Under the pieces are notes generated by a model. That model made no database searches and was not told the origin of the DNA. It saw only the letters and a list, made by a program, of their open reading frames with translations. This document shows positions 3,618 through 23,093 of a stretch of DNA of 46,683 nt, piece after piece (the first letter of the stretch is position 1; each line of letters begins with the position of its first letter). The stretch lies in NCBI GenBank assembly GCA_049298815.1, contig JBAQWH010000603.1, positions 1-46,683 on the forward strand, given 5' to 3'. The position numbers and the translations under genes were made by a program. The stretch is from Thermoanaerobaculia bacterium. GTDB taxonomy: Bacteria > Acidobacteriota > Thermoanaerobaculia > Gp7-AA8.

Positions 3618-6330
3618 CACGAGAGCACGCCTGAGTTAGTGCCGCGAGTGTGGCGTTGCCATTCACCGCATCATGCGGGATGAGCAGGTAGCGCCAGGGC
3701 TTCCCGTCGATCGAGCCTTCGTGCTTCGAGGCACGCTCGCACCATGCGACGGCGGCCTTCGCCTTCGCCTCGACCTCAGGGTCGGTCATTTCGTTTGTCG
3801 CCTTGATCTCGCAGATGAGCTTCTCGTCGGCCGTCTCGACGACGAAGTCGGGGACGTACTCCTGGTCGCCGCGGCCGTAGCGGTAGAAGATCCGGAGGAT
3901 GCCGCTGCTCGGGCGGAACCACTTGTCGACGCTCTTCGTGTCTTCGAGGAGGACGGAGAAGCGGCGCTCCGTGTCGGAGTCGAACTTCGCGCTCTCGTAG
4001 AGCGCCTTCTGGAAGCCGGTGAAGAGCATCCCGCGGATGTACTGCTTGTCGTCGACGGGCGCGCGGAACGACCGCGGCGACTCCCCGGCGGGGAGCGAGA
4101 AGCTGCTCGGGCGGAGCGAGACAAAGCCCTTCGCGACCTTCACGTCGAGGTCGGACTGCGTTTCCCAGTAGTGCTCCTGCATCTGCGCGTGCACGAGCTC
4201 CGCGAGCGGGCGCTGGTAGTACTGGAGGACGTTCGTGACCTCGTCGTCATCCTTCAGATACGAGCGAAGGTGCGTGACGACCTGGCCGGCAAGCTTGTAG
4301 AGGAGTTCCGACTGGTCGTCATAGGAGATGTCGTCTTCCAGAACGAGTGGGCTCACGACGTAGTTCTCAAGACGAGGCTCCTGCGGTGCCATCCGTCCAG
4401 CGGTCAACGTGTCGCGCTTGTGGGTCTGCAGGTGTTGAATCAGGATGTCGTCATCCACCGGCTGGTACCTGAGGTTCGCGAGGTTCAGGTCGAAGTCCCG
4501 GAATCCGGAGGTGATCTCGCCCGTCGGTACGACGCTGATGCGCGGGATGTCGATCGTCTTCTCGGCACGTAGCGCCAGCGTCTTCTCCACGTCGGCCGCG
4601 ATGTCGGGCCTCTCCACGATGCCCTCGATGGTCTGCTGACCCGCGTTGTAGGCCTCAGTCACCTTCTGAATGATCTGCGCCTTGATCTCGGGTTTCTGAA
4701 GGTCACGCGAACTCGGCAGCCGTTCGAAGTCCTTCACGACGTCCATCGTGATCTTCGCCACCCGCTGCGATTCGATCGTCGGGAACGGGTGCTGCGCGGC
4801 GCCCTTGATGCCGAGTTGGGTCGCATTGGGTCTGTCTGCGATGACGCCCGTCTGGACGGACGGCGTGGGTGAGGGGCCGACGAGGACGTCAATCCACGGC
4901 TTCACCTCGACGCTCTGCTTCTTCTCGAGCGGAACGTGCGTCACGACGATGCCGCCACGAATCGCGGAGTCCGGCCGGTTCGCCTCGTCGACGATCTCCT
5001 GGAAGCGGTCGTGCGCGACGATGGTTAGGCGGTCGACGGCGGTGACCCCGACGCGCTTCGCGTACGGAAGCCGTAATCCCCGCCCGATCGACTGCTCGAC
5101 GAGCGTCTTCGAGTTCGCCGTGCGAAGCGGGACGATCGTGTAGAGGTTCGTGACGTCCCAGCCCTCCTTCAACATGTTCACGTGGATGACGATCTCGGTC
5201 TTTTCGTCCGGACTCTCGACCGCGAGGAGACTCGCGATGACCTCGTCCTTTTCCTCGCCCTTCTGGTTTGAGTGGACCGTGATGACCCGGTCGCGGTAGC
5301 GGCCCTCGAAGAACTGGTCCTCCTCGATGAGCTTCTGGAGCGCGTTCGCGTGCTCCGTGTCCTTCGCGACGACGAGCACGAACGGCTTCACGATTGGCTG
5401 GTCGTAGTTCCGCGCGTACGTTTCGAGCTCGACCTTCGTCGCCTCGTGGACGCGCACGCCGTCTTCGAGCTTCAGCCGTTCTAGCTGCTCGGGCGTATAC
5501 GCATCTGCGTTGAAGTTCTCGCGTGTCGCGACGGCCGGTTCTTTCACGAAGCCATCCGCAATCGCTTGCGAGAGCGGGTAGCTGTAGATGATGTTCTTGA
5601 ACGGGATCGGGGCCTTCGAGCCCTGCTCGACCTGCGGCGTCGCCGTCAGCTCGAGGCCGAGGATCGGCTTCAGCTCGTTCAGGACGCGGACGCCGGCCTC
5701 TGCGCGGTACCGGTGCGACTCGTCCATGATGAGCACGAGGTCGGGAAGGCCCGCGAGGTACTCGAAGTAGCTCGTCCCGATGTACTCCGCGAGCCGCTTG
5801 ATCTTCGGAGTCTTTCCGCCGCGCACCTCGGCGTTGATCTTCGAGATGTTGAAGATGTTGATGTGGACGTCGTCGAAGAGCGTCGTCTGGACCCGCGTCC
5901 CCTGACCCCGCTCGTAGTCATCGCCGGTGATGATGACCGGCGGGTTGTTCGCGAACTCCGAGATTCCGTTCAGCACGTACTTCGGATGTCCGGGCGTGAA
6001 GTCCCGAATGAGCTTGTTGTAGATCGTGAGGTTCGGCGCGAGGACGAAGAAGTGGCGGATGCCCTTCGTCTGGTAGAGATAAGCGATGAAGGCGCCCATG
6101 AGGCGCGTCTTGCCGACGCCCGTAGCGAGGGCAAAGCAGAGCGACGGGAACTCGCGCTCGAAGTCCTCGACCGACGGATACTCGGACCGGATGATGTCGA
6201 GCGCCGCCGTCACGTCCGTGTCCTTCGCCGGCGGAACGATCTCTGTCACCCGCGCTAGGATCTCGAGCGCGTCGCGCTGCGGCGGGCGGAGGCTCAGGCG
6301 ACCGCTGATGGAGTTCACGTGACGGTTCAT
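3604..6330 (-). CDS. res: Type III restriction enzyme Res subunit (SF2 helicase plus C-terminal nuclease)
   Basis: Helicase motifs 'LATGVGKTRLMG', 'LIMDESHRY', 'LELTATP' and 'GRGLRL', plus a C-terminal PD-(D/E)xK-like 'YVPDFVVE...LICEIKA'. ATG 6330 overlaps the mod stop (ATGA 6327-6330). The 53 extra N-terminal codons in the ORF track lie inside mod and are Arg/Gly-rich. Confidence 0.85.
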   Translation of the reverse strand: MNRHVNSISGRLSLRPPQRDALEILARVTEIVPPAKDTDVTAALDIIRSEYPSVEDFEREFPSLCFALATGVGKTRLMGAFIAYLYQTKGIRHFFVLAPNLTIYNKLIRDFTPGHPKYVLNGISEFANNPPVIITGDDYERGQGTRVQTTLFDDVHINIFNISKINAEVRGGKTPKIKRLAEYIGTSYFEYLAGLPDLVLIMDESHRYRAEAGVRVLNELKPILGLELTATPQVEQGSKAPIPFKNIIYSYPLSQAIADGFVKEPAVATRENFNADAYTPEQLERLKLEDGVRVHEATKVELETYARNYDQPIVKPFVLVVAKDTEHANALQKLIEEDQFFEGRYRDRVITVHSNQKGEEKDEVIASLLAVESPDEKTEIVIHVNMLKEGWDVTNLYTIVPLRTANSKTLVEQSIGRGLRLPYAKRVGVTAVDRLTIVAHDRFQEIVDEANRPDSAIRGGIVVTHVPLEKKQSVEVKPWIDVLVGPSPTPSVQTGVIADRPNATQLGIKGAAQHPFPTIESQRVAKITMDVVKDFERLPSSRDLQKPEIKAQIIQKVTEAYNAGQQTIEGIVERPDIAADVEKTLALRAEKTIDIPRISVVPTGEITSGFRDFDLNLANLRYQPVDDDILIQHLQTHKRDTLTAGRMAPQEPRLENYVVSPLVLEDDISYDDQSELLYKLAGQVVTHLRSYLKDDDEVTNVLQYYQRPLAELVHAQMQEHYWETQSDLDVKVAKGFVSLRPSSFSLPAGESPRSFRAPVDDKQYIRGMLFTGFQKALYESAKFDSDTERRFSVLLEDTKSVDKWFRPSSGILRIFYRYGRGDQEYVPDFVVETADEKLICEIKATNEMTDPEVEAKAKAAVAWCERASKHEGSIDGKPWRYLLIPHDAVNGNATLAALTQACSRDATS

Positions 6331-8009
6331 TTCGTGGGGGCGATATCGAAGAGCGAGAGGGAGTCCTCCGTCGCGCTCTTCTTCGCCTTTCCTTTCGCGG
6401 ATTTCGCGGGAGGCTCGTCGTCTGCCACGCCGAGGTCCGCCGCCGCGGGAAGATTCTTGATCTGGAGGCTGTAGTCGTCGCGGCCCCACTCGCAGCGCGA
6501 GAGCACCGCGTGCGGGATCTTCTTGATCGTGAGGTTGGCGAAGGCGTCGGGTTTCGCGCGGAAGGCGGCGCAGCAGACGAGGAGCGTCCGCCCCTCGCCG
6601 ACTTCATCGCTCAGGGACTGAAGCTGATCGCGCGTGAGCTTCTGCGTCGTGACGTAGATGAAGTCGCGTTCCGTGGAGTAGCCCTGCTGCCAGTAGATGT
6701 CCGTCGGCGCGTACGTGAAGCCTTCGAGCTTGCAGACGGCCTCGGCGAGCATGTCGGCGTTGTAGCCCTTGTTGATGACCGGGTTGCCCCACTTGTCCTT
6801 CTCGATGAGGGACGAAGCGAGCTTGAAGTAGCGGAAGCCGCCTCCGCCCTTCCAATCGACGGCTTCGGTAATGCCTCCTGCATCGGTACCGTCGACGACC
6901 TTACGAAGGCGCGGAACAATGTGCGTCTTCGCGTGCTCGCCGAGTTCCACCATGATCCAGCGGCGGCCCATTTTGTGAGCAACGGCCCCCGTGGTCCCAG
7001 ATCCCGCGAACGAGTCCAGAACAATGTCACCTGGATCAGATGCGATGTGGATGATCCGCTGAAGCAGACGCTCAGGCTTCGGCGTAGAGAAGATGTCATC
7101 CCGACCAAAGATGCGGGTCACTTCTTGCTTAGCTTCTCGATTGTTCCCAACTTCCTCGTGCGACCAGACAGTAGTGGGCACCAATTCGCCCAACTCGGAA
7201 CGGAAACGCTTTCTGAAGGGAAAGGTCTTTCCAGTCTTTCCCCACCAGAGCCGGTTGTCGGCCGCAAGACCATAGAATGTCTCTCTTGAGATGCTCCACC
7301 ACCGGTTCGCACGAGGAGCGAACACGTCACCATGCGGTCCGGTGACCTCATATTTGCCGTCGGCGTACGACTTCGAAGCCGTTAGATCCGAGCGCCGCCA
7401 ATCCCCTCGTGGGTCAGAATCAGGATTCCAGAAGTCGGCATCGCTTGCTTCCGTCCGCCCAACCTTGTTGCGGCGCCAGCTCTCAATCTCTTTCGCATAC
7501 ACAAGAATGAAGTCGTGATCGGCAGAGAAAAACTGAGCGGAGTTGTTACGGGCGTGCAGCTTCTGCCAAATGACGGTCGCAACGAAGTTTCGGCGTCCAA
7601 ACACCTCGTCCAGGAGCACCTTCAGGTAGTGCCCTTCATTGTCATCGATATTGATCCAAATGCTTCCGTCATTGCGCAGTGTGCGACGAAGCAGTTCGAG
7701 GCGGTCCCGCATCAAGGACAGCCAAAGCGAATGCTCGATTCCGTCGTCATAGTGTTCAAACGCTGAGCCGGTGTTGTACGGCGGATCAATGTACACACAC
7801 CTCACTTTGCCAGTGAACTCCTGCTCCAAAGCCTTCAGAGCGAGTAGGTTGTCCCCGAAGATGAGACGGTTGTCGAAGATGTCGTTAGGTCCGACTCGAT
7901 GCGCGGCGTGGTACGACAGCTCAGGATCTTCCAACAGGATGCGCGGCTCGAGACGAGGCCGCTGATCCTTTCCGATCCACTGCAGTTCGAGTTTCTGATT
8001 CCTGGCCAT
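6327..8009 (-). CDS. mod: Type III DNA methyltransferase Mod (beta-class N6-adenine/N4-cytosine MTase)
   Basis: Motif IV 'VYIDPPYNTG' precedes motif I 'VLDSFAGSGTTG'. The N-terminus 'MARNQKLELQWIGK' is typical of Type III Mod. An AAGGA Shine-Dalgarno lies 5 nt upstream of ATG 8009. Confidence 0.9.
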   Translation of the reverse strand: MARNQKLELQWIGKDQRPRLEPRILLEDPELSYHAAHRVGPNDIFDNRLIFGDNLLALKALEQEFTGKVRCVYIDPPYNTGSAFEHYDDGIEHSLWLSLMRDRLELLRRTLRNDGSIWINIDDNEGHYLKVLLDEVFGRRNFVATVIWQKLHARNNSAQFFSADHDFILVYAKEIESWRRNKVGRTEASDADFWNPDSDPRGDWRRSDLTASKSYADGKYEVTGPHGDVFAPRANRWWSISRETFYGLAADNRLWWGKTGKTFPFRKRFRSELGELVPTTVWSHEEVGNNREAKQEVTRIFGRDDIFSTPKPERLLQRIIHIASDPGDIVLDSFAGSGTTGAVAHKMGRRWIMVELGEHAKTHIVPRLRKVVDGTDAGGITEAVDWKGGGGFRYFKLASSLIEKDKWGNPVINKGYNADMLAEAVCKLEGFTYAPTDIYWQQGYSTERDFIYVTTQKLTRDQLQSLSDEVGEGRTLLVCCAAFRAKPDAFANLTIKKIPHAVLSRCEWGRDDYSLQIKNLPAAADLGVADDEPPAKSAKGKAKKSATEDSLSLFDIAPTK

Positions 8010-8065
8010 TCAGTCCTTACAAGTAGGGCGTTCCGTCAGCGAAAACTGTACAGGCTTTGCGAGGC

Positions 8066-10888
8066 TCATGCGAGCGTCCAGCGCACCGTGAAGAGCTCTC
8101 TCGTCGAAACGCGCTGCTGGAGCTGCCGCTCGATCTCGCCGATGAGGGTGTCGCGCTTCTCGTCGATCGTGTCCTGGGCGTCGAAGAGCTCCGCCCGCTT
8201 TTTCTTCTTCTTCCCATCGAGTTCCTTCAGCTTCTTCTGGCCGGCGAGCTTCTCTGCGAGCGTGCCGCTCCCCGCCGTCGCCCGGCGGATGTCGCGGATC
8301 TCCCGATCCAGTTCCTTCAGCTCCTGCTCAAGGCCGAACTTCAGGTCCTCGGCCCACAGTTCGAGCTTCGCGACCTCTTCGTCGAAGTGCTTCGCATTCC
8401 GCGACTCAACGGACGCGACGTGCTCAGCGACGCGCGCCTTCGTCGCGTCGTCGAGCGCGCCAGTCGGCGTCGCGGCGGAGGCGTCCCCGCCGACCTTCGC
8501 GTCGAGTGCGAAGAGCTTGCGCGCGAGGTCCTCGTCGAGAAGCAGTCCGTCGTCGCTCGCGGCGATGACGTCGAGCCGGTCCTCCGCTTCGAGCGAGGTG
8601 ATCGTCGTCTTCACGACGCGCAGCCATCCGCTCTTCCCGATGAACGGCTCAAGCGCGCTGATCTTCGCGCCGTAGCCCGAGAGGTCGAACCGGACGTGCG
8701 CTAACGGAAGGTTGCGCTCCGCAGCGCGCTCAATGAGGGTCCTCGCGAGCGGATGATCCGCGCGGTAGAAGATCTCGTTCGCCGCCTCGGCACTCTTCCA
8801 GTCGAAGTTGTACGTTCCCGCAGGGGCGATTGCGCCGCGGTAGCGGAAGCGATTGCCGTCCCACTCGGCGTCGCCGTCGAGCTCCGCGTGCGTGAGGTCG
8901 CGGAGCAGTTCCTGGTGCGCGGTGAGCGCACGTTCCGACTCCGCCATCCGGAGCCTGATCCGCGCGTGGACGTCGACGTCGAAGTTCTCGAGGAGGTTCT
9001 TCCGCGTCTCGTCCATCCTCGACGCGATCTGTTCGTCGAGTTCGGCCTGGATCTTGTCGAACGCCGTCTGGATCTCCTCGGCGGTGCGGCACTCCTGGTA
9101 CACCTGTGCGATGCGCCGCTCGATGTCGACGCCGGATTCCAGTGCGCCGAGGACCTCGTCGCTCGCGCCGAACACGCCGTCGAAGAGCTTGAACTTCTCC
9201 GCGAGGAGCTTGTAGACGCGCTGATCCGCTTCGTTGCGCTTGTTCAAAAAGTTCACGACGACGACGTCGTGCTTCTGGCCGTAGCGGTGGCAGCGGCCGA
9301 TGCGCTGCTCGATGCGCTGCGGGTTCCACGGGAGGTCGTAGTTCACGACCAGGGAGCAGAACTGGAGGTTCACGCCTTCGGCCGCCGACTCCGTCGCGAT
9401 GAGGAGCGTCGCGCGGTCGCGGAACTCCTCGACGATCGCGGCCTTCGTGTCGGCCGACTTCGAGCCGGAGATGAGGTCGGAGTTCGCGTGCCGCTGCTTC
9501 CATGCTTCGTAGATCGCACGGGAGCCGGGGTCCGTGTTCGTCCCGTTCATGAGGACGATCTCTCCGGCGTAGCCCTGCTTGCCGAGGAAGTCCTGCAGGT
9601 ACGCCTGCGTGCGGCGGGACTCCGTGAAGATCACGGCCTTCCGCGGCGCGCCGAGGTCCGCGGCCTTCCGGAACGCGGCGTCGAGGGCTTTCAGGAGCGC
9701 GTCACCCTTCGCGTTGTGGTGGATCTCCTCGGCGAGCGCGGCGTACGTCCGGAGCTCCCCGAGCTCCTGCTTCAGTGATGCGCGATCGATCACGAGCTCG
9801 TCGCCGTTCTCGTTCTCCGTCCACTCGTCCTCGAGTTCCTTGATCGCCTCGAAGTCTTCCTCGTCGAACGGTCGGATCTCCTTCTCCATCGCTTCGAGCC
9901 GCTTGATGAGGCTCCGTAGCGTCCCGGCGATCGCGAAGGTCGACGACGCGAGGAGCCGGCGGAGGATGAGCGTCATGAGCGTGCGCTGGCTCGCGGGGAG
10001 CGCATGGAGCACCTCGCGCTGGAGGTACGCCGAGACCTGCTCGTAGAGCTGGTGTTCCTTCTCGGACGGCAAGAACTCCTGCGTGATCGGGACGCGCTGC
10101 GTGAAGCGGATGTACTCGAGGACCTGCCTGCGGAGTGTCCGGCGACAGAGCTGCGTGAGCCGCCGCTTCAGCTCCGTGTTCCGCGCGACTTCGTCGTTCC
10201 CGCGGAGGAACTGCTCGCGAAAGGAGATCGGGTCGCCGAACACGTGCTCGTCGATGACGGAGACCAGGCCGTAGAGCTCCATGAGGGAGTTCTGGAGCGG
10301 TGTCGCGGTGAGGAGCACCGTCGGCCGCCCCTTGATCGCCCCGACGATCGCGTTCGCCATCTTGTTCTGGGGCTTGTAGACGTTCCGGAGGCGGTGCGCC
10401 TCGTCGATGACGACGAGGTCCCAATCGACCTGCCTCACTTCTTTCGCTTTGGCAGAAACGAAGTGATACGAGGCGATCACGATCCGGCCGAGAAGATCGA
10501 ACGGATTTCCCGGCCAGAGTTTTCTCGCCGCATTGAAGTTCGCGGATTCGAGGATCGTCGTCGGGATCGAGAACTTCTCCTCGATCTCCTGCTGCCACTG
10601 CTTCCGGAGCGTCGCTGGGACGATGAGGAGGATCTTCCGCTTCCGCTCGGCCCACCGCTGCGCGATGACGATCCCCGCCTCGATCGTCTTCCCGAGGCCG
10701 ACCTCGTCGGCGAGGAGGACGCCCTTCGTGAAGGGCGAGCGGACGGCGAAGAGCGCCGCGTCGACCTGGTGCGGGTTCAGGTCGACCCGGGCGTTCGCCA
10801 TCGAGCGCGAGAGGTTCTCGACCGTCCCGGGAGGGCCTTGCAGGGTCAGGGCATGCGCCCAGTAGGCGCTATGGAAGGGGGTCTTCAT
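8066..10888 (-). CDS. SNF2-family helicase with a long coiled-coil C-terminal extension
   Basis: Motifs 'LLADEVGLGKTIEAG' (I), 'LVVIDEAHRLRN' (II), 'LLTATPLQNS' (III) and 'GVNLQ...YDLPWNPQRIEQRIGRCHRYGQK' (V-VI). There is a ~330-aa C-terminal extension ending in a Lys/Glu-rich coiled coil. Confidence 0.88.
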   Translation of the reverse strand: MKTPFHSAYWAHALTLQGPPGTVENLSRSMANARVDLNPHQVDAALFAVRSPFTKGVLLADEVGLGKTIEAGIVIAQRWAERKRKILLIVPATLRKQWQQEIEEKFSIPTTILESANFNAARKLWPGNPFDLLGRIVIASYHFVSAKAKEVRQVDWDLVVIDEAHRLRNVYKPQNKMANAIVGAIKGRPTVLLTATPLQNSLMELYGLVSVIDEHVFGDPISFREQFLRGNDEVARNTELKRRLTQLCRRTLRRQVLEYIRFTQRVPITQEFLPSEKEHQLYEQVSAYLQREVLHALPASQRTLMTLILRRLLASSTFAIAGTLRSLIKRLEAMEKEIRPFDEEDFEAIKELEDEWTENENGDELVIDRASLKQELGELRTYAALAEEIHHNAKGDALLKALDAAFRKAADLGAPRKAVIFTESRRTQAYLQDFLGKQGYAGEIVLMNGTNTDPGSRAIYEAWKQRHANSDLISGSKSADTKAAIVEEFRDRATLLIATESAAEGVNLQFCSLVVNYDLPWNPQRIEQRIGRCHRYGQKHDVVVVNFLNKRNEADQRVYKLLAEKFKLFDGVFGASDEVLGALESGVDIERRIAQVYQECRTAEEIQTAFDKIQAELDEQIASRMDETRKNLLENFDVDVHARIRLRMAESERALTAHQELLRDLTHAELDGDAEWDGNRFRYRGAIAPAGTYNFDWKSAEAANEIFYRADHPLARTLIERAAERNLPLAHVRFDLSGYGAKISALEPFIGKSGWLRVVKTTITSLEAEDRLDVIAASDDGLLLDEDLARKLFALDAKVGGDASAATPTGALDDATKARVAEHVASVESRNAKHFDEEVAKLELWAEDLKFGLEQELKELDREIRDIRRATAGSGTLAEKLAGQKKLKELDGKKKKKRAELFDAQDTIDEKRDTLIGEIERQLQQRVSTRELFTVRWTLA

Positions 10889-11028: not shown

Positions 11029-12507
11029 ATGACTCCCACCGACCTCGCGAACTACGTCCGCTGCCCCCACCGCGTCTTCCTGGACAAGCACGGGGATCCG
11101 GCCGCGAAACTGCCTCCGAACGCCTTTACGGAGCTCCTGTGGGCCGGAGGGCTGTCCCACGAAGCGACCATCATCGACGGCCTCGAGGTCGCGACCGTGG
11201 ACACGACTCTGTCGTATCCGGAACGGGCCGCCGCGACGCACGCGCTCATGGCGCAAGGCGTCGCCGCGATCTACCACGGGATCCTCATCCTCGACGACCT
11301 GCGCGGCGAACCGGATCTCCTCGTGCGCTCCGACCGGCTCGTCACGGAGTTCGGGGCGTACGGCTACAACCCGGTCGACGTGAAGAACGGGAAGGCATTC
11401 TCAGACGCGAAGAAGTCGAAACCGAAGGCACCGTATGCAATGCAGCTCTGCGCGTACGCCGAGATGCTCCAGTTCGTGCAGGGCTGCCGACCGCCCATCG
11501 GGCAGATCATCGATGCCGACGGTGTGTGGAACTCGTACGACCTCGACGCCTTCTGGCCGGAGTACGAGCGGCTGCGCGATGAAGCGGTGGCGACGATCAA
11601 GAGGACGAAGACGACGGAGCCGGGCTGGCAGGCGGCGTGTGCGTCGTGCGCGTGGCAGCAGCACTGCTGGGCGCAGCTCGTCGCGACGGACGACCTCACG
11701 ACCGTCGACGGCGTCGGCGCGAGCTACAAGGAGCGTCTCTACACGATCGGGGTGCGGACGGCGAGCGAGCTTGCCGCGGCCGACCCAGAGACGCTCGTCG
11801 GGGTGAAGGGCATCAAGCTCGCGCGGGCGCAGGTCTGGACGCGAAAGGCGCGCGTGCAGAAGAGCGGGAGTCCCCTCTTCCTCCAAACGTGGACGCCGCC
11901 GGACGTCGACTTCGAGGTGTCGTACGACATCGAGGACTACTCGCTCGATCCGTACGTCTACCTCCACGGACTCCTCGTCCGACCGCGTGGCGCACGCCTC
12001 TTCGGGAGCGACGCCCACACGGACGCGGACTTCGGCACCTTCGAGCCCGTCTGCGCGACGTGGCCCGAGACGGAGGAGGCGGTGTGGAACGCGTTCCTCG
12101 CCAAGGTCGCCGACATCGACGCCCGGGGAACATACGTCGTCTACGTCTACTCGCACCACGAACGGACGACGTTGAAGCGCCTCGCCGCAAAGTACGGAAC
12201 CTCGGACGCACTCGACCGGTTCGTGAAGGCGTTCGTCGATCTCGAGCGCGTCATGAAGCGATCCGTCGTGATGCCCACCGACAGTTCGTCCTTAAAGGCG
12301 TACGCACGGTTCGCCGGCTTCAACTGGCGCGACGAGGATCCCGGCGGCTCGCAGAGCCTCGCGTGGTGGAACGCGTACTGGACGGACGCCGCCGCGAAGG
12401 CAGAGCTACGCGAACGCGTGATCCGCTACAACGAAGACGACGTCCGCGCAAGCTTCGTCGTGCGGGACTGGCTCGCGCGAACCAGCACTGCGTCAGGTTC
12501 GACTTAG
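11029..12507 (+). CDS. TM0106-family RecB/Cas4-like nuclease with a C-terminal RNase H-like exonuclease domain
   Basis: The N-terminus is 'DLANYVRCPHRVFLD'. The PD-(D/E)xK-like core is 'EPDLLVR...YNPVDVKNGK'. Cys12 plus 'CASCAWQQHC' resemble a Cas4-type Fe-S cluster. The C-terminal 'YDIEDYS...YVYSHHERT...YNEDDV' resembles a DEDD exonuclease. Confidence 0.7.
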   Translation: MTPTDLANYVRCPHRVFLDKHGDPAAKLPPNAFTELLWAGGLSHEATIIDGLEVATVDTTLSYPERAAATHALMAQGVAAIYHGILILDDLRGEPDLLVRSDRLVTEFGAYGYNPVDVKNGKAFSDAKKSKPKAPYAMQLCAYAEMLQFVQGCRPPIGQIIDADGVWNSYDLDAFWPEYERLRDEAVATIKRTKTTEPGWQAACASCAWQQHCWAQLVATDDLTTVDGVGASYKERLYTIGVRTASELAAADPETLVGVKGIKLARAQVWTRKARVQKSGSPLFLQTWTPPDVDFEVSYDIEDYSLDPYVYLHGLLVRPRGARLFGSDAHTDADFGTFEPVCATWPETEEAVWNAFLAKVADIDARGTYVVYVYSHHERTTLKRLAAKYGTSDALDRFVKAFVDLERVMKRSVVMPTDSSSLKAYARFAGFNWRDEDPGGSQSLAWWNAYWTDAAAKAELRERVIRYNEDDVRASFVVRDWLARTSTASGST

Positions 12508-14820: not shown

Positions 14821-15687
14821 CTACGCGGAGGCGGCGCGGAGGAGACGCTCGAGGATGACGCCCTTGAGGCTCGCCGGATCCGCCTTCGGCAGCAATACGC
14901 GGATCGCCGCGCGGCCGAGTTCCTCCTTGAGACGCGCAGCCGCTTCGTCGCCCGACGAGTCGTGATCGAAGAGGATGCAGACCCGCGAGAAGCGACTGAG
15001 GAGCGCGCGCTGCGCTGCGGTGATCCGGCAGCCGAGCGATGCAACCACATGCGGAAAGCCGACCTGGAACACGCCGAGCGCGTCGAAGATGCCTTCGACG
15101 AGGATGACGGTCTCCGCGCCGGAAGCCTTCACCCGGTGCAGGTTGAAGAGGAGCTCACGACGGCGAACGCCGCGCTGGAAGCAGTAGCGGGGTTCGACGG
15201 CGTCATCGACGGCACGGCCGATGTGGCCGACGAGGGTGCCGTCTGGAGCGTGGAGCGGCGCGATGATCCGTCCGCCGAGCGGAGGCCGGCCGCGGAAGTA
15301 GCCGAGTCCGAAGTGCCGCGCCGTCGCCTCGTGGATCCCCCGCTCGAGGAAGTACGGATGCGTGGGATCGAGCGGCGTGAGCGGGACGACCGGCCCAATG
15401 CGTTCGGGACGTTCGTGGGCAGTTGGGCGGACGACGTCGAGCGGATCCTCTCCACGCATCCGCGCGACGAACTCCTCGATGCTCCCGCCCTCCCCGCACG
15501 CGAAGCAGAAGAAGCCGCGACCGGGGGTGAGCGCGAACGAGGAGACCCGCGTTCCGTGATGGAGCGGGCATGGCCCGCGCCACTGCGAGCCGTGCCAGGT
15601 GAGGTCGAGGCGGAACTCCTCGATGAGGTTCTCCCATGCTTCACGCGTCACGGGAGTCTCCGATGCCGACAAACCTCCGACGGTCAT
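14821..15687 (-). CDS. DnaG-like primase-related protein (CHC2 zinc finger plus TOPRIM)
   Basis: CHC2 finger 'CPLHHGTRVSSFALTPGRGFFCFACGEGG'. TOPRIM Glu in 'VILVEGIFDAL' and DxD in 'ILFDHDSSGDEAA'. The start is ATG 15687, with alternatives GTG 15651 and the track start 15735. All of them overlap the end of the upstream ATPase gene. Confidence 0.75.
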   Translation of the reverse strand: MTVGGLSASETPVTREAWENLIEEFRLDLTWHGSQWRGPCPLHHGTRVSSFALTPGRGFFCFACGEGGSIEEFVARMRGEDPLDVVRPTAHERPERIGPVVPLTPLDPTHPYFLERGIHEATARHFGLGYFRGRPPLGGRIIAPLHAPDGTLVGHIGRAVDDAVEPRYCFQRGVRRRELLFNLHRVKASGAETVILVEGIFDALGVFQVGFPHVVASLGCRITAAQRALLSRFSRVCILFDHDSSGDEAAARLKEELGRAAIRVLLPKADPASLKGVILERLLRAASA

Positions 15688-18565
15688 CCGGCTTTGGGAA
15701 ACGAAGCCAGCGCCACACGCGCTGCTGGACACCATCCACGAGACGGCGGACGGCGGCGGGAATGTCCTTCTTCTGCGTTCCGCTCGGAATCGCGAGCGGA
15801 AGGTGATCTCCGCTCGTGATCCACAGCGGCGACCGCGCGTCGCCGAAGACCGCGCGCGCCCCCTCGAAGAACTTCTGCTCGATCGCGTCGGTGCGCGTCC
15901 ACACGACGACGCGAAGTTCCGAGTCCGGCTCGGATACCTGTCCGTCGAAGGTGCGGCCCGCGTAGAACGCCTTGCTGATCGCCTGAAGCTTCCACGCTTT
16001 CACCGCGGCAAGGTCGCTCGCGTCTCGCTCGCCGAATCCGGTCTCTACCTCTCCGAGGATGATGTCGCGGATCATCCGTCCGTTCTTTTCGCGAATCGCG
16101 ACGAACGAGAAATCCGGCACGTAGGCGGTCTTCTGGAGATCGGGACCGAACAGCGGACGAAGGCGATCCGGGATCGCGCTCCCGGACAGATCCAAACGCA
16201 CGGACCTCTCGCGATCGAACCGGACGTCATCCACTCGCGCACCGCGGCCGACGAGACTCTGCATGAGCAACGTCTGCAGCGTCGACGACCAGAGGCGGTG
16301 CTCGGTCTGCGCGGGTCGATTCGACTCAACCGTCCGGCGGAAGACGCCGAGGTTCTTTGCGATCCGGCGGAGGTTCTCGTTCTCAACGTCATTCGCGGAG
16401 AGACGGTCCGCCCCCGCCGTCGTGAGGATGTAGATGATCGGTGCGGAACCCTCGCCGCGGGGCGCGAACCGCCGCACCGAATCCGCGTATCCGGCCTTCA
16501 CGAGAGACTGCAGTTCGCGAGCGGCCTTGTCGTAGCTCCAATCGAGAACAGCGAGGATGTGCTGGATCGTGCAGAGACGCACGAGGGCGATGACGCGAAG
16601 CAGTTCGATGCCGCGGTCCGCCGTCGGAGTGACGGGCGAAAGCGACACCGGAATGTCAGGTGCCGCCTCCGGGGTGGGTGTCGACTTCGCCGACCGTGGG
16701 GGCTTCTCGGTGGAACGGGACTTCGCCGGGGGGCGGGGCACGTCGACGTTCCCGAGCGCGTTGCCGGCGAGCGTGATGGCCGGGGCGAACGGCTTCCGTG
16801 CCACCGCTTTCGCCTTCCAGTAGTGATCGTGCCAGCGCGTGTAGTACTCGAGCGCGTTCACCCCTCCGATCTCCTCCGGGAACTTCCTCGGCGGGTCCAT
16901 GTCGATCTCCACGGCGTTGCCGCCGTAGCTCCAGGTCGCCTGGTAATCGGGGCGGCGGAGGAGCGCCTGCGCGCCGACCGACAGCTGCTCTTCGAACGGA
17001 ATGCGGATGATCATTTCAGCGAATGCCGCGCCGACCGTCGTGCCGAGCGTCGTGCTGCGCGAGCCGCCGGTCGATGAGGAGCTGCCATGACTGTCCGACC
17101 ACCCGTTGCCGCGCTGCGCCTGCCGGGAGAGACGGCGGTTCTCGCCGAGGTCGTCCGCCGAATCGCCGCTGGACGCGCTTTCGTTGCCGGTGATCGATGA
17201 CGAAGAGTTGATTGCTTCCTGCCACGAGTCCGTCAGCGTTTCCGAGGACGTGCGGCTCGTCGAGTCCGTACGCGTGAGCAGCCGGTGCAGCACGCCCATC
17301 GGATCGATAGGGTGCGTGCGAAGGTAGAGCTCCTTCGCCTGCTGCATTGACGTCGGCCGCCAGTCGGCGTTGAGGCTGCAGACCGATTCGCGGATGTCGG
17401 CCATCTCGTCGATGCCGGCGGCCTTCCACTGCGCGATGTTCTGGAACAGGAGCCAGGTCGAGATCCCGAGATTCCTCGCCTGCGCCATGTGCGTGAGGAT
17501 GGACCGTGGAACCCACTTGTCGGCCTCATCGAGGAAGTAGTGCAGCAGGTCGTACCTCCCACTTCCGGGGCTCCGCAGGGCGAAGTGCGCGCTGTTGATC
17601 GCGTGCACTGCAAGGAAGGCTTCCTTTCGGAGTGTCTCGTTCGGGAGATCGGTCGTGAGGAAGAAGCGTCCGTTCCCGTATGTCGCTTCCGCCGGATCGT
17701 ACGTCTCGTCGGAGCCGAAGAACGTGCCGAGCGCCGTCCCCTCGTCGTAGTCGTCCATGCTGTTCGCGAAGCTCTCCGTGCGCTGCTCGAAGACGGACTT
17801 CGGCAACGCGCGGAGTTCGAGGAGCTTCTGGAGCTGACGCTGGACGAAGATGTCGGCCGCGAGACCGTTCGCCTCGATTTCGCGCAGGAGGAACTGGAGG
17901 TAGGCGTCATCGTCCTTGTCGAGCGGCCGTGACCACTCGCAGATGCTCCGTCCGGCGGCGACGAGGACCGTGAGGACGATCTTCGCCGTACGCCGGAACC
18001 GCACGCGGAGATCCATGTCGTCGAAGCGCATGCTAAAGACGTTCAGGACGCGATCCACGACTTCCTGGACTGACTCCATCGTGCCGTCGGGGCGGCGACG
18101 CCGCTTCATGATGTCGATCCGGATCGGATTGTCTCCGCGGTACGAGATCGTCCCGAATGCGAAACGCCGGAGGAACCAGTCCGTCGCGCCGGTGAGGATC
18201 TCCGGGAACATCCTCTCGAGCGTCATGAGGATCGTCCCGAGAAACGCCTTGTGCGTCCGTGCCGCGTGAAAGCCCGTTCCGATGAAGTCCATCGCGATGA
18301 GCGCCATGTCATCGAAGGGCGACGCGAAGTCGAGTTCCTGCCCGGTCGTCGTCTTGCCGGCGCCCGTCTTGCCGTTCATGGCGACGTTCATTTCCGTCGA
18401 CCAGAGCGGGAGAGATACCGGCGCGCCGTCTCCGACGCGCCGCCCCAGATAGATCGATGGCACCGACGGGAGGAACGACCGCAGCGCCCGGAGGAAACGC
18501 GGCGGTCCGATCTCAGCGACGCTGTTCGACGTCGATCGGCGTGACGTTCGAGCGGGTAAAAACAT
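15641..18565 (-). CDS. FtsK/HerA/T4CP-like P-loop ATPase fused to a replication-relaxation-like wHTH/nuclease-fold C-terminal domain
   Basis: Walker A 'NGKTGAGKTT' is preceded by 'IYLGRRVGDGAPVSL'. Walker B is 'LHYFLDEADKW'. 'ARNLGISTWLLFQNIAQW' is coupling-protein-like. A Ser/Thr-rich linker follows. The C-terminus has 'LLRVIALVRLCTIQHILAVL...LVKAGY' (wHTH) and 'YVPDFSFV...ILGEVETG'. There are no N-terminal TM helices. Confidence 0.65.
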   Translation of the reverse strand: MFLPARTSRRSTSNSVAEIGPPRFLRALRSFLPSVPSIYLGRRVGDGAPVSLPLWSTEMNVAMNGKTGAGKTTTGQELDFASPFDDMALIAMDFIGTGFHAARTHKAFLGTILMTLERMFPEILTGATDWFLRRFAFGTISYRGDNPIRIDIMKRRRRPDGTMESVQEVVDRVLNVFSMRFDDMDLRVRFRRTAKIVLTVLVAAGRSICEWSRPLDKDDDAYLQFLLREIEANGLAADIFVQRQLQKLLELRALPKSVFEQRTESFANSMDDYDEGTALGTFFGSDETYDPAEATYGNGRFFLTTDLPNETLRKEAFLAVHAINSAHFALRSPGSGRYDLLHYFLDEADKWVPRSILTHMAQARNLGISTWLLFQNIAQWKAAGIDEMADIRESVCSLNADWRPTSMQQAKELYLRTHPIDPMGVLHRLLTRTDSTSRTSSETLTDSWQEAINSSSSITGNESASSGDSADDLGENRRLSRQAQRGNGWSDSHGSSSSTGGSRSTTLGTTVGAAFAEMIIRIPFEEQLSVGAQALLRRPDYQATWSYGGNAVEIDMDPPRKFPEEIGGVNALEYYTRWHDHYWKAKAVARKPFAPAITLAGNALGNVDVPRPPAKSRSTEKPPRSAKSTPTPEAAPDIPVSLSPVTPTADRGIELLRVIALVRLCTIQHILAVLDWSYDKAARELQSLVKAGYADSVRRFAPRGEGSAPIIYILTTAGADRLSANDVENENLRRIAKNLGVFRRTVESNRPAQTEHRLWSSTLQTLLMQSLVGRGARVDDVRFDRERSVRLDLSGSAIPDRLRPLFGPDLQKTAYVPDFSFVAIREKNGRMIRDIILGEVETGFGERDASDLAAVKAWKLQAISKAFYAGRTFDGQVSEPDSELRVVVWTRTDAIEQKFFEGARAVFGDARSPLWITSGDHLPLAIPSGTQKKDIPAAVRRLVDGVQQRVWRWLRFPKPDDRRRFVGIGDSRDA

Positions 18566-20671: not shown

Positions 20672-20904
20672 GTCTTGGCTCCTTTTCATTGACTGCTGGA
20701 GCCGTTATGCCGTGGGAGATGCCGATCTCCGACTGCGTTCTTCACGGGGTGTGCGATGTGGTTGGATTTCTCTTGATGATGTTGGGCGGGCTGGGGGTCG
20801 TCGCTCAGTGCTGCAATTCAGCAGGCGCGATTCGGTACCTAGAAGGCAGGCGACAAATCGACGCGGACCTTGACCAACATCGACGGATCTCGAACACTTG
20901 AGTC

Positions 20905-22881
20905 GTGAAAATCCAAGCACTGACAATCGAGAACTTCCGGTGTGTGCGTTCCGCGCATGCGGACCTGCGCGCGCTCACTGGCTTCGTCGGGCGGAACGGC
21001 GCCGGCAAGAGCACGTTTCTTCAGGCATTGCAGCTCTTCTACGCGCCCTCAGCCACTGTCACGCCTGAGGATTACTACGCCAATGCGACAACCGAGGACA
21101 TCGCTATCCAGATCACGTACGGCGATCTACGCCCTGAAGAGAAGGCGGAACTCGAGGTCTACATGGATGGCGACACGCTGACCGTCACGAAGCGCTTTCC
21201 GGCGCTCGGCGACGGGGCAAAGGGAACGGCCGGCAAGTACTTCGCCAGCCAGCGCGTGTTCCCGCCGTTTCAGTCCGTCCGCAAGGCCACTTCCGCTGCT
21301 GACCGGAAAGCCACATACAACGACCTGATCGATAGCGCCACGTTGCCGCCCGATACGCCGAAGGCGAAGAAGGACTCCGACGTGTACGACGGCATGAAGG
21401 CGTTCGAGGCCGCGCATTCCGAGGTGCTCAAGCGCGAAGAGATGGAAACACAACTCTTCGGCGAGAAGAGTGTCGGGTCGGGGAAGATCGAGAAATTCAC
21501 GCGGTTCGTCTACGTGCCTGCCGTCAGGGACGTCACCGATGAGGCCGCAGACCGTAAAGCATCATTCGCGCAACTACTGGAGCTGGTGGTCACACCGAAG
21601 ATTCAGGCGCGCCCGGAAGTTCAACAGCTTCCAGCGAAGATCCAGGCGCTCGTCGACAACGCGTACGACAAAGCGGTCATCGGACAGGATCTCGCGACGC
21701 TTGCCTCGGATCTAAACGGGGTACTGAAACCGTTCGTCGGCGACGCCCGCCTGAGCTTCGATCTCATCGCCCCGGACGTAAAGCCGTCGGAGCCGCGCAT
21801 CGTCCCCACCGTTACCGAAGATAGTTTCGCCGGCGAGCTCTCTCGCAAGGGGCATGGCCTGCAGCGGGCGATCATCTTTACGGTGCTCTCCCATCTCGCG
21901 CGCATCCGTAGCGGAGCAGCGCCCGAGAGCCAGCCTGATCTTATCCTCGCAGTCGAGGAGCCCGAGCTCTATCAGCATCCCTCGCGTTGTCGACAGATCG
22001 CATCAGTTCTCCGTCAGCTCTCCGAGGCCTCTGCGCCGGGGAACCAAGTCCTCTTCACAACGCACTCCCCCTACTTTCTTGATATCGAGCACTTCGAAGA
22101 CGTGCGTATTGTCCGTAAGGCGCAGGGCGGTGGCGGCGCGGCCGAGTCTGCCGTCACGAAGCTGACCTTCGACGCGATTCGCGAAACGTGGGCCCGGTGT
22201 TGCGAGAAGGAGCCCAAAGAGATCACCCGAACGAGCCTTGCATCGCGTTTGACGAAGCCGTTCCTGACTTCGGCGAGTGAGGGATTCTTCGCCGATGTTG
22301 TCGTTCTCGTCGAAGGCGCAGGCGATGCCGCTCTGCTGCTCCGGCTCGCAGAACGCATGAAGAAGTCATGGGACGAGCGTGGTGTCGTCGTCATCCGCAC
22401 CGATGGGAAGGCAAACCTTGGCGCTCCATGGCTCGTCTTCCAAGCGTTCAACATCCCGACGTATGTGCTCTTCGATGGGGACGTCCGGTATCGGGGTCGT
22501 GGCGGCTCCGATGAGAACCAAGCCACGATGTACAACAAGTTCCTGCAGCGTGCGGGCGGCATCGCGACACCCGAGGCTTTCCCGGCGACGAAGGCCGGAG
22601 CGACGTTTGCGTGTCTAGAGGACGAACTGGAGACGGCCTGCAAGAACGCTGTGGGTGACGAGGCCTACAGCGCTGCTCTTAGCACCGTCGGGATGCAGAT
22701 CGGATCGAAGCCGAGCGAGGTGTTGAACAATGCGACCGGTGCTGCGTTGTTTCTCGATCACGTGTATGACTCCGGTGACCGCCTCCCCTTCGCGGAGCAG
22801 ATCGTGGAAGCGATCACGGCATTTGCGGAAGCCGCGCAGCAACCTCCGATCATCACTCCCGTGCACCAAGAGGTAGCATGA
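20905..22881 (+). CDS. OLD-family nuclease (ABC-type ATPase fused to TOPRIM)
   Basis: The N-terminus 'MKIQALTIENFRCV...GRNGAGKSTFLQAL' carries Walker A. Walker B/D-loop is 'LILAVEEPELYQHP', followed by 'FTTHSPYFL'. The C-terminal TOPRIM is 'VVLVEGAGDAALL...YVLFDGD'. The start is GTG. Confidence 0.85.
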   Translation: MKIQALTIENFRCVRSAHADLRALTGFVGRNGAGKSTFLQALQLFYAPSATVTPEDYYANATTEDIAIQITYGDLRPEEKAELEVYMDGDTLTVTKRFPALGDGAKGTAGKYFASQRVFPPFQSVRKATSAADRKATYNDLIDSATLPPDTPKAKKDSDVYDGMKAFEAAHSEVLKREEMETQLFGEKSVGSGKIEKFTRFVYVPAVRDVTDEAADRKASFAQLLELVVTPKIQARPEVQQLPAKIQALVDNAYDKAVIGQDLATLASDLNGVLKPFVGDARLSFDLIAPDVKPSEPRIVPTVTEDSFAGELSRKGHGLQRAIIFTVLSHLARIRSGAAPESQPDLILAVEEPELYQHPSRCRQIASVLRQLSEASAPGNQVLFTTHSPYFLDIEHFEDVRIVRKAQGGGGAAESAVTKLTFDAIRETWARCCEKEPKEITRTSLASRLTKPFLTSASEGFFADVVVLVEGAGDAALLLRLAERMKKSWDERGVVVIRTDGKANLGAPWLVFQAFNIPTYVLFDGDVRYRGRGGSDENQATMYNKFLQRAGGIATPEAFPATKAGATFACLEDELETACKNAVGDEAYSAALSTVGMQIGSKPSEVLNNATGAALFLDHVYDSGDRLPFAEQIVEAITAFAEAAQQPPIITPVHQEVA

Positions 22882-23093
22882 ACTACGTACCCGTAAGTTC
22901 GACCAATATTGTCGCCGTTGCGTACGACGCGACGACGAGCACGCTCGGCGTACGTTTCCACAGTGGTTCCGAATACGAGTACCGGAACGTCCCGGTCTCG
23001 ATCTTCATCGGTCTCCGTTCGTCGACGTCGGCTGGTACGTACTTCGACCAGAATGTCCGAAAGGCAGGATTTTCGTTCCGTCAGGTCCGATGA
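22878..23093 (+). CDS. KTSC-domain protein (71 aa)
   Basis: 'VSSTNIVAVAYDATTSTLGVRFHSGSEYEYRNVP...GTYFDQNVRK' matches the KTSC pattern, including the central YxY motif. The ATG overlaps the OLD stop as ATGA (22878-22881). Confidence 0.75.
   Translation: MNYVPVSSTNIVAVAYDATTSTLGVRFHSGSEYEYRNVPVSIFIGLRSSTSAGTYFDQNVRKAGFSFRQVR

Follow-up and report, generated by a model that had tools for sequence, protein, structure and literature searches.

An OLD-family nuclease gene and a KTSC-domain gene form a recurrent pair in a Thermoanaerobaculia bacterium and in other bacteria and archaea

The OLD-KTSC gene pair and its two proteins

The stretch of DNA studied here, called the window, comprises 46,683 nucleotides of contig JBAQWH010000603.1 from a Thermoanaerobaculia bacterium (assembly GCA_049298815.1). 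Between positions 20905 and 23093 of its forward strand it shows a gene encoding an OLD-family protein, with an ABC-type ATPase and a TOPRIM nuclease in one polypeptide, followed by a small gene encoding a KTSC-domain protein. A first-pass annotation, made from the sequence alone, had described these genes as a translationally coupled pair and as a possible new subclass of OLD systems; the coordinates, lengths and overlap are exactly as described there. The OLD-KTSC pair is a real self-contained two-gene unit, and contains the following features:

20905..22881, forward strand: OLD-family gene with a GTG start, 658 residues, ABC-type ATPase and TOPRIM nuclease (open reading frame, Pfam, PADLOC and AlphaFold)
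20989..21015, forward strand: Walker A motif (P-loop) GRNGAGKST, residues 29-37 (sequence; G29, G32, G34, K35 and S36 invariant)
21847..21981, forward strand: from the signature-like KGHGLQRA (residues 315-322) through the Walker B and D-loop motif EEPELYQHP (residues 351-359)
22285..22482, forward strand: TOPRIM nuclease domain, residues 461-526, with catalytic E470 (in VEG) and D524-x-D526 (DGD) (Pfam PF20469)
22504..22836, forward strand: C-terminal helical region of the OLD protein, residues 534-644, five helices with a predicted local distance difference test score (pLDDT) of 93-98 (AlphaFold)
22870..22873, forward strand: Shine-Dalgarno sequence GAGG of the KTSC gene (read from the sequence)
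22878..22881, forward strand: ATGA overlap of the KTSC start codon and the OLD stop codon, translational coupling (sequence)
22878..23093, forward strand: KTSC-domain gene with an ATG start, 71 residues, isoelectric point (pI) 9.7 (Pfam PF13619, AlphaFold, and the ratio of nonsynonymous to synonymous substitutions, dN/dS)

The GTG of the OLD gene is the earliest start codon past the preceding in-frame stop, and the N-terminus read from it aligns with those of the homologues. The GAGG sequence is located 4 nt ahead of the KTSC start codon, within the 3' end of the OLD gene. A promoter proposed at 20870-20898, which would make the mRNA nearly leaderless, finds no support: the consensus scan, in which the -10 hexamer AACACT fails, calls no promoter there, and the region upstream of the OLD gene shows no conservation across the homologous loci.

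Pfam searches find AAA_15 (8.6e-35), AAA_21 (9e-17) and OLD-like_TOPRIM (PF20469, 1.4e-16, residues 461-526) on the large protein, and KTSC (PF13619, 1.8e-19, 69.6 bits with a gathering cutoff of 25) on the small one, in agreement with the domains read at first pass. The motifs named in that reading are also present: GRNGAGKST and EEPELYQHP at the residues listed above, LVEGAGD at residues 468-474 and LFDGD at residues 522-526 of the OLD protein, and the YxY motif, YEY, at residues 33-35 of the KTSC protein. The best PADLOC model for the OLD protein is Old (9e-57); the models of AriA, which covers residues 1-392, and GajA are weaker. No NCBIfam model reaches its cutoff on the proteins of the pair. 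Scored over 70 OLD homologues, the P-loop K35, the Walker B E352 and the H-loop H387 are invariant, as are G316-R321, E352-E354, H358 and P359 in the ATPase and E470, G471, G501, D524 and D526 in the TOPRIM domain, with K502 nearly so (at least 90%), and all the catalytic positions are intact. K35, E352 and H387 align with the K34, E276 and H310 motifs of the OLD protein of Thermus scotoductus (Ts OLD), and the Walker B glutamate matches that of IIEEPE in Ts OLD, where E276 is essential (PMC7049728). Judged by these residues, the protein has both hallmarks of the OLD family, an ABC ATPase with the lysine, glutamate and histidine residues and a TOPRIM domain with a glutamate and a DxD motif.

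The AlphaFold model of the OLD protein has a pLDDT of 87 and a predicted template modelling score of 0.82. In the fold search the closest structure is Ts OLD, which belongs to Class 1 (6p74), followed by GajA and the OLD protein of Retron-Eco8, and the sequence searches likewise place the protein nearest Class 1. It is about 30% identical to Old of the P2-like phage KS5 and, in the structural alignment, 18% identical to Ts OLD, from which it differs in being about 130 residues longer and in showing about 110 residues of confident helices after the TOPRIM domain; Ts OLD has no helical domain at its C-terminus (PMC7049728). With a pI of 5.3, the OLD protein is acidic; it is closest to the Class 1 DNA nucleases, not to AriB.

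The KTSC protein is modelled with a pLDDT of 95 and shows the topology beta-beta-beta-alpha-alpha-beta, which is the beta3-alpha2-beta fold of the solved KTSC structures; S8, F27, Y33, Y35, S51 and G53 are its invariant family positions. The model matches two orphan KTSC crystal structures, 7x8c and 4rgi, with template modelling (TM) scores of 0.93 and 0.88, and also, with TM scores of 0.79-0.86, the C-terminal end of HerA from the SIR2-HerA complex of Paenibacillus. Nothing else in the PDB fold search lies below E = 0.4, and no known nucleic-acid-binding fold is matched. No PADLOC model matches the protein. The KTSC proteins linked to OLD genes are basic, with a median pI of 9.2, which is only suggestive of the conjectured binding to nucleic acids. 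The family, whose domain spans about 60 residues and has a conserved YxY motif, takes its name from its presence at the C-terminus of lysyl-tRNA synthetase (Pfam description). KTSC is termed an RNA-binding domain in PMC7824862 and a DNA-binding domain by the same group in PMC9503650, in neither case with an experiment, and the RNA-binding label is a conjecture of databases and literature.

Conservation of the pair and comparison with known OLD systems

The family of the OLD protein consists of proteins of about 660 residues with 3,523 database matches. The census includes 80 loci from species-representative genomes and 80 from metagenomes, of bacteria and archaea; among the matches listed, the metagenome loci are 30-38% identical to the window clade, and nearer relatives were fetched singly. 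A KTSC profile, built with jackhmmer from the window protein, was run against six-frame translations of the loci, and 145 loci had enough flank to be judged; 67 paired OLD and KTSC sequences were collected. KTSC adjoins OLD on the same strand in 68 of the 145 loci: directly upstream in 58, with a modal gap of 5-12 nt, and directly downstream in 10, with a 4-nt overlap or a 1-nt gap. KTSC is absent at the other 77. In about 1.3 Mb of flanks, the 68 adjacent pairs compare with one non-adjacent KTSC, at L049, 3.3 kb away (flanks of the first 84 sources). The 4-nt start/stop overlap of the window is found identically in L001/L002, L003 and L254. The lineages with KTSC include Thaumarchaeota, Methanoregula, Dehalococcoidia, Acidobacteria, Bacteroidota and Verrucomicrobia, and also Thermotogae, Acidimicrobiia, Latescibacterota and Desulfacinum infernum DSM 9756; among cultured organisms, the pair is present in Haloferax volcanii, Halorarius, Janthinobacterium and Paraburkholderia. 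The search in the reverse direction gives the same picture, with three of the four best standalone KTSC genes looked up (Haloferax volcanii, Janthinobacterium and Halorarius) lying immediately upstream of an OLD gene.

In the window clade, KTSC is adjacent in every member that is at least 51% identical to the window OLD protein. It is located downstream at 77% (P0002), at 64% (P0004, where the gene had previously not been called), at 56% (P0007) and at 51% identity (P0006), and no KTSC is found in P0011, P0013 and P0017, at 43%. A KTSC protein 59% identical to that of the window is encoded downstream, with a 4-nt overlap, of an OLD gene whose product is just 26% identical. In the neighbour-joining tree, the window clade, with KTSC downstream, is sister to a clade without KTSC, and the other large clade mostly shows KTSC upstream, with scattered losses and a few switches to the downstream position. 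The KTSC gene of the window clade may have been acquired independently, or may belong to an ancient association that was later rearranged. The distances of the OLD and KTSC proteins co-vary in the mirror-tree comparison (r = 0.52, which none of 2000 permutations reaches in the Mantel test), and in the window clade, where dS is saturated, both genes show a dN/dS of about 0.1 and nearly equal dN, as under purifying selection of equal strength.

No conserved third gene is found at 55 loci bearing the pair, where the nearest long open reading frames are mixed and encode RmuC, Schlafen/AlbA-HATPase proteins, methylases, Fic proteins, integrases, parts of restriction-modification (R-M) systems, a phage portal protein and housekeeping proteins; RmuC is the most frequent neighbour (5 of 94). 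The OLD loci without KTSC show no alternative conserved small neighbour. Residues or insertions of OLD that track the presence of KTSC were looked for, and those found are clade-specific differences, mostly not shared by the window protein, in proteins of equal length. The adjacency census, the co-variation, the equal dN and the lack of a third gene therefore indicate that the pair is a self-contained unit that is inherited and moved together. Co-conservation of KTSC with the OLD homologues, on which the first-pass annotation had made its proposal depend, is found, and since adjacency occurs in both gene orders and across bacterial and archaeal phyla, its wording of an undescribed two-gene OLD subclass is a fair description.

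Among the more distant OLD genes without KTSC, that of a Citrobacter freundii plasmid (L258) lies in the order helicase, DUF4391, OLD, DUF2130 and DNA methyltransferase, and that of a Roseibium plasmid (L260) lies between a gene encoding an AAA ATPase and an overlapping gene encoding a hypothetical protein. These two apparent operons may be further uncharacterised OLD neighbourhoods. In a 56% homologue of the window pair (L167, 5001-7195), the OLD gene is split into parts of 518 and 128 residues, likely by a frameshift, the downstream KTSC gene is intact, and two phage-type integrase genes come next.

The current scheme of OLD proteins comprises Class 1, a lone gene; Class 2, Gabija, with GajB; Class 3, linked to retrons; Class 4, PARIS, split into AriA and AriB; Class 5, Cran1 with a membrane protein; and the uncharacterised clades U1-U10 (PMC7049728, PMC12796447). 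The OLD-KTSC pair agrees with the definition of the family and lacks the defining neighbourhood of every one of Classes 1-5. As in Class 1 (P2 Old, Ts OLD and Vibrio cholerae OLD), one polypeptide combines an ABC ATPase at the N-terminus, a helical insertion and, at the C-terminus, a TOPRIM domain; however, Class 1 is a lone gene with no conserved neighbour (PMC7049728, PMC12796447), whereas the pair has KTSC, and the window protein shows confident C-terminal helices past the TOPRIM domain that Ts OLD lacks. Gabija also has two genes around an OLD ATPase-TOPRIM protein, and the weak GajA match and the extra helices after the TOPRIM domain, which may correspond to the helical domain of Class 2, are further points of likeness, but its partner is the superfamily 1 helicase GajB instead of a 71-residue KTSC protein. 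No UvrD-like gene is found among the neighbouring open reading frames, the OLD gene being followed downstream by KTSC and then by a tRNA gene, and this bears out the earlier exclusion of Gabija. PARIS shares with the pair an OLD-type ABC ATPase, which the AriA model matches, and a two-gene organisation; PARIS was rightly set aside as well, because the ATPase and the TOPRIM domain are both in one open reading frame of 658 residues, and in addition the second gene does not encode a nuclease and there is no sign of tRNA targeting. Retron-Eco8 (Class 3) and Cran1 (Class 5) are alike in having an OLD protein with a conserved genomic partner. No reverse transcriptase gene is found in the flanking open reading frames, and Rfam finds solely the tRNA, and no retron RNA, in the window. 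Cran1 is specific to Sulfolobales, is inherited vertically and is in an operon with a gene for a membrane protein (PMC12796447); in contrast, the family of the pair extends across many bacterial and archaeal phyla and its partner is a soluble KTSC protein. None of KTSC, Haloferax volcanii, Halorarius and Janthinobacterium has an entry in the supplementary files of PMC12796447, hence the pair is not placed within U1-U10. Full-text searches of the literature library used found no description linking KTSC with OLD, and the nearest published statement is one line, given as an unpublished observation, on the occurrence of KTSC genes alongside HerA-like ATPases and endoDNases (PMC9503650).

KTSC with other partners and the surroundings of the pair

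The KTSC family, for whose search a profile was needed because a single sequence found only 3 proteins, contains 31,246 representative clusters at E <= 1e-3, and its members are also found with partners other than OLD. KTSC is the third gene of SIR2-HerA operons in E. coli C5 plasmid A (L265, NZ_CP010123.1 171133-174429) and in a plasmid of Sulfitobacter faviae (L264). These operons are bona fide, with PADLOC E values of about 1e-160 for both SIR2 and HerA and no KTSC model, and that of E. coli is present in one of 5,426 complete E. coli genomes. In HerA of Paenibacillus sp. 453MF (PDB 8wiv/8wld), the KTSC module is fused at the C-terminus. The KTSC-like segment, residues 633-689, lies within the arm domain (576-696), which touches the adjacent ATPase subunit and lends stability to the split-spiral hexamer (PMC11472057). 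This complex is the sole structural context that shows KTSC with a partner, and PMC11472057 neither names KTSC nor tests it separately. SIR2-HerA resembles the OLD-KTSC pair in joining the same fold, by fusion or through an adjoining gene, to a defence ATPase that is oligomeric. The two differ in this ATPase, which in SIR2-HerA is a hexamer of the HerA/FtsK type accompanied by a SIR2 effector, and not an ABC-type OLD nuclease.

A prokaryotic E2-E1(ThiF) operon of Halorubrum sp. CBA1229 plasmid pCBA1229 (L263, 681-3713) ends in a KTSC gene that overlaps the E1 gene by 4 nt, and the same E2-E1-KTSC arrangement is found at match H18, on a Halorarius plasmid. Two type I R-M operons show the gene order HsdM, RelE-like, HsdS, HEPN, KTSC and HsdR, with KTSC directly upstream of HsdR (L172, 5001-5213; L173, 4496-4708). 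Fusions of KTSC with TPR arrays, with ankyrin repeats plus Mrr_N, with Sel1 repeats and with a PIN_8 nuclease domain are also found, and tandem arrays of two to four copies occur (P0263, P0249, P0254, P0245, P0316 and P0244); these fusions and arrays suggest oligomerisation and a role in multidomain proteins of the conflict type. On viral contigs there are 329 KTSC matches, belonging to phrog_3292, of function unknown, and none of the 80 viral loci examined (L174-L253, for example L174, 4001-4216, and L218, 3989-4204) contains an OLD gene near KTSC. At three inspected loci, two of them in prophages and one in a Bacillus cereus arbitrium phage-plasmid (L267), KTSC stands alone, is encoded on the other strand than its neighbours and is placed like a moron. 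Such lone viral KTSC proteins could be decoys or exclusion factors. The KTSC sequences are not sorted by partner: the ThiF-linked haloarchaeal KTSC of L263 shares 73% identity with the OLD-linked one of Haloferax volcanii, the HsdR-linked KTSC reaches 69%, the median best identity of viral KTSC proteins is 60%, and the OLD-linked proteins have a median of 50% among themselves. To the KTSC protein of the window, the viral ones are at most 53% identical.

Elsewhere in the window, the following genes and features are located to the left of the pair and, in the case of the tRNA gene, to its right:

1902-3620, reverse strand: gene encoding a SIR2_2 protein, overlapping the helicase gene
3604-6489, reverse strand: gene encoding a ResIII/SWI2-SNF2 helicase of 961 residues with a TnsA-like endonuclease C-terminus
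6327-8009, reverse strand: gene encoding an N6/N4 DNA methylase
8066-10888, reverse strand: gene encoding an SNF2 helicase
11029-12507, forward strand: gene encoding a protein with HHH_5 and RNase_H_2 domains
14821-18565, reverse strand: genes encoding a DnaG-like primase (zinc ribbon and Toprim) and a TraG-D_C/Replic_Relax protein of 974 residues
23308-23384, reverse strand: tRNA-Met(CAT), found by Rfam, 214 nt from the KTSC stop codon

The region 1902-10888 is likely a run of defence genes, and the primase and the TraG-D_C/Replic_Relax protein suggest an integrative mobilisable element. The HHH_5 and RNase_H_2 architecture recurs at L168 (599-2146), between a gene encoding a prokaryotic Argonaute (pAgo, Piwi) and a DEAD/MZB helicase gene, next to the KTSC-OLD pair of Haloferax volcanii. 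The tRNA-Met gene shows a promoter-like site of its own, TTGACG-17-GATAAT (23439 to 23411), and a terminator hairpin (23295-23270), both on the minus strand, and is therefore an independent transcription unit facing KTSC. To its right there are chromosomal genes encoding ArsR, an FG-GAP protein of 1788 residues, a pyruvate:ferredoxin oxidoreductase and an aminotransferase, and the part to its left looks like a mobile or defence island. Neither a direct repeat of the 3' end of tRNA-Met, as an att site, nor an integrase gene was found within the window. The closeness of the pair to a tRNA gene, pointed out in the first-pass annotation, is thus real, but it does not hold as a functional clue: a tRNA gene is adjacent at none of 50 homologous pair loci, and tRNA-Met is therefore taken as the boundary of the island. 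The homologous pairs adjoin type I R-M systems, Y1 transposases, NACHT-like genes with integrases or a pAgo cluster, or lie on a plasmid. The patchy distribution, with bacteria and archaea mixed in one clade, indicates horizontal transfer.

Role of the KTSC protein in the OLD-KTSC pair

On balance it seems somewhat probable that OLD acts as the effector of a two-gene module in which KTSC is a portable subunit with a regulatory or sensor function. The module would be the cargo of a mobile island rich in defence genes, at the edge close to the tRNA gene. The OLD protein would be an ATP-driven, metal-dependent TOPRIM nuclease similar to those of Class 1, which most likely nicks or degrades DNA once activated. 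KTSC, presumably made from the OLD mRNA by coupled translation, would be an accessory subunit that is small, basic and probably oligomeric; docked on the assembled OLD ATPase, it would govern the timing or the target of OLD action, as a regulator or sensor and not as a tRNA adaptor. Other conflict enzymes that use ATP (SIR2-HerA, E1/E2 pairs and type I R-M systems) would contain near-identical versions of this portable module. We infer in this way that KTSC binds OLD, that the target is DNA, that the role is anti-phage and that KTSC is regulatory. Since KTSC is conserved with whatever it is paired, and its fusions to protein-interaction repeats are frequent, a generic regulator or sensor is favoured over a substrate adaptor.

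Several points weigh against this explanation. About half of the OLD family, with proteins of the same length and no distinguishing motif, is without KTSC, including the nearest relatives of the window clade (P0011, P0013 and P0017), and so OLD evidently works without KTSC. No natural OLD-KTSC fusion is found among 10 long or multi-KTSC proteins checked from the top 150 matches, and the physical interaction between the two proteins is presumed. The anti-phage role is deduced from family and context, and the archaeal OLD protein Cran1 is not a defence protein (PMC12796447). RNase activity in vitro is reported for P2 Old (PMC7049728), and an RNA target of OLD is therefore conceivable. KTSC is also found in settings other than defence, as in Klebsiella, where it is a lone gene between ompK37 and uspF in a housekeeping context, and, reportedly, at the C-terminus of lysyl-tRNA synthetase (Pfam description).

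It is unlikely that KTSC is an antitoxin-like safety catch, which would silence a toxic OLD protein until infection removes or titrates KTSC, with the phage KTSC proteins acting as counter-defence decoys that keep OLD off. KTSC is small, tightly coupled to OLD and mostly encoded first, as are the antitoxins of type II toxin-antitoxin operons, and its basic charge faces the acidic charge of OLD (median pI 9.2 and pI 5.3, respectively); the many viral KTSC matches, with no OLD gene at the 80 loci examined and up to 53% identity to the window protein, and two prophage loci with a lone, opposite-strand, moron-like KTSC would agree with decoys. However, half of the family, near relatives included, has an intact OLD without KTSC, and KTSC is strongly conserved over phyla and unrelated partners, unlike the fast-evolving antitoxins. 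In one system KTSC is permanently fused to HerA, and L167 keeps KTSC though its OLD gene is broken.

A broader form of the sensor proposal, also held with low probability, is that KTSC is a universal plug-in sensor that reads one common cue for OLD, SIR2-HerA, E1/E2 and type I restriction, with the prophage KTSC proteins as decoys. The cue could be a small molecule of the nucleotide or adenylate type, or a conserved phage or nucleic-acid signal; the adenylate-type cue is considered because ATP or adenylates are handled by lysyl-tRNA synthetase, E1, ABC and HerA enzymes alike.

It is improbable that the pair is a module for DNA repair or chromosome maintenance like Cran1, with KTSC as a DNA-binding cofactor and no immune role. 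Housekeeping roles are possible for OLD proteins, as Cran1 shows (PMC12796447), RmuC is the most frequent neighbour of the pair, and some loci lie amid ordinary metabolic genes. Against this, the patchy distribution, with bacterial and archaeal members in one clade, indicates horizontal transfer, pairs lie on plasmids, beside integrases or transposases and in R-M or pAgo islands, and the genomic position is variable, with the window copy in a mobile island.

The proposal of the first-pass annotation that KTSC is a tRNA or RNA adaptor, steering the TOPRIM nuclease to tRNA as AriB of PARIS acts on tRNA-Lys, fares worse and is very unlikely. It would fit the origin of the family name in lysyl-tRNA synthetase (Pfam description), the description of KTSC as an RNA-binding domain (PMC7824862), its basic charge, the TOPRIM tRNA nuclease AriB (PMC11464382, PMC12409363) and the RNase activity of P2 Old in vitro (PMC7049728). 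However, RNA binding by KTSC is a conjecture whose authors later speak of DNA binding (PMC9503650), its fold matches no RNA-binding fold of the PDB, and its other partners are DNA motors and nucleases (HerA and HsdR) or an E1 enzyme. The OLD protein resembles the Class 1 DNA nucleases, with a fused TOPRIM domain of the OLD-like Pfam type, and tRNA adjacency is found at none of the 50 loci.

That a small KTSC gene lies by chance after an ordinary stand-alone Class 1 OLD gene, as the many stand-alone members of the family might suggest, is practically negligible and is refuted by the census: over about 1.3 Mb of flanking DNA, 68 KTSC genes are adjacent and one is not, the pair occurs in both orders, start/stop overlaps are conserved, and co-variation and equal dN are found.

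Few defence proteins are as widespread as the OLD nucleases, and we know of no trigger identified for the single-gene Class 1 enzymes. A conserved partner of about 70 residues would give a handle on the regulation of OLD and would add a class beyond 1-5. To our knowledge, KTSC has two orphan crystal structures and no known function. Annotation pipelines label the locus as a lone Old gene and a KTSC domain-containing or hypothetical protein, so that the module is invisible to them. KTSC is now tied to four kinds of conflict systems (OLD, SIR2-HerA, E1/E2 and type I R-M) and to prophage morons, and may be an overlooked accessory of several anti-phage systems, whereby the question of a domain of unknown function becomes testable. 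The cultured sources include Haloferax volcanii, plasmid p1 of Paraburkholderia caffeinilytica CF1, with the pair WP_115783653.1 and WP_115783652.1, and plasmid A of E. coli C5. If KTSC is a shared plug-in, the OLD-KTSC pair would be a sixth OLD class, and no simpler model would be at hand for studying the module.

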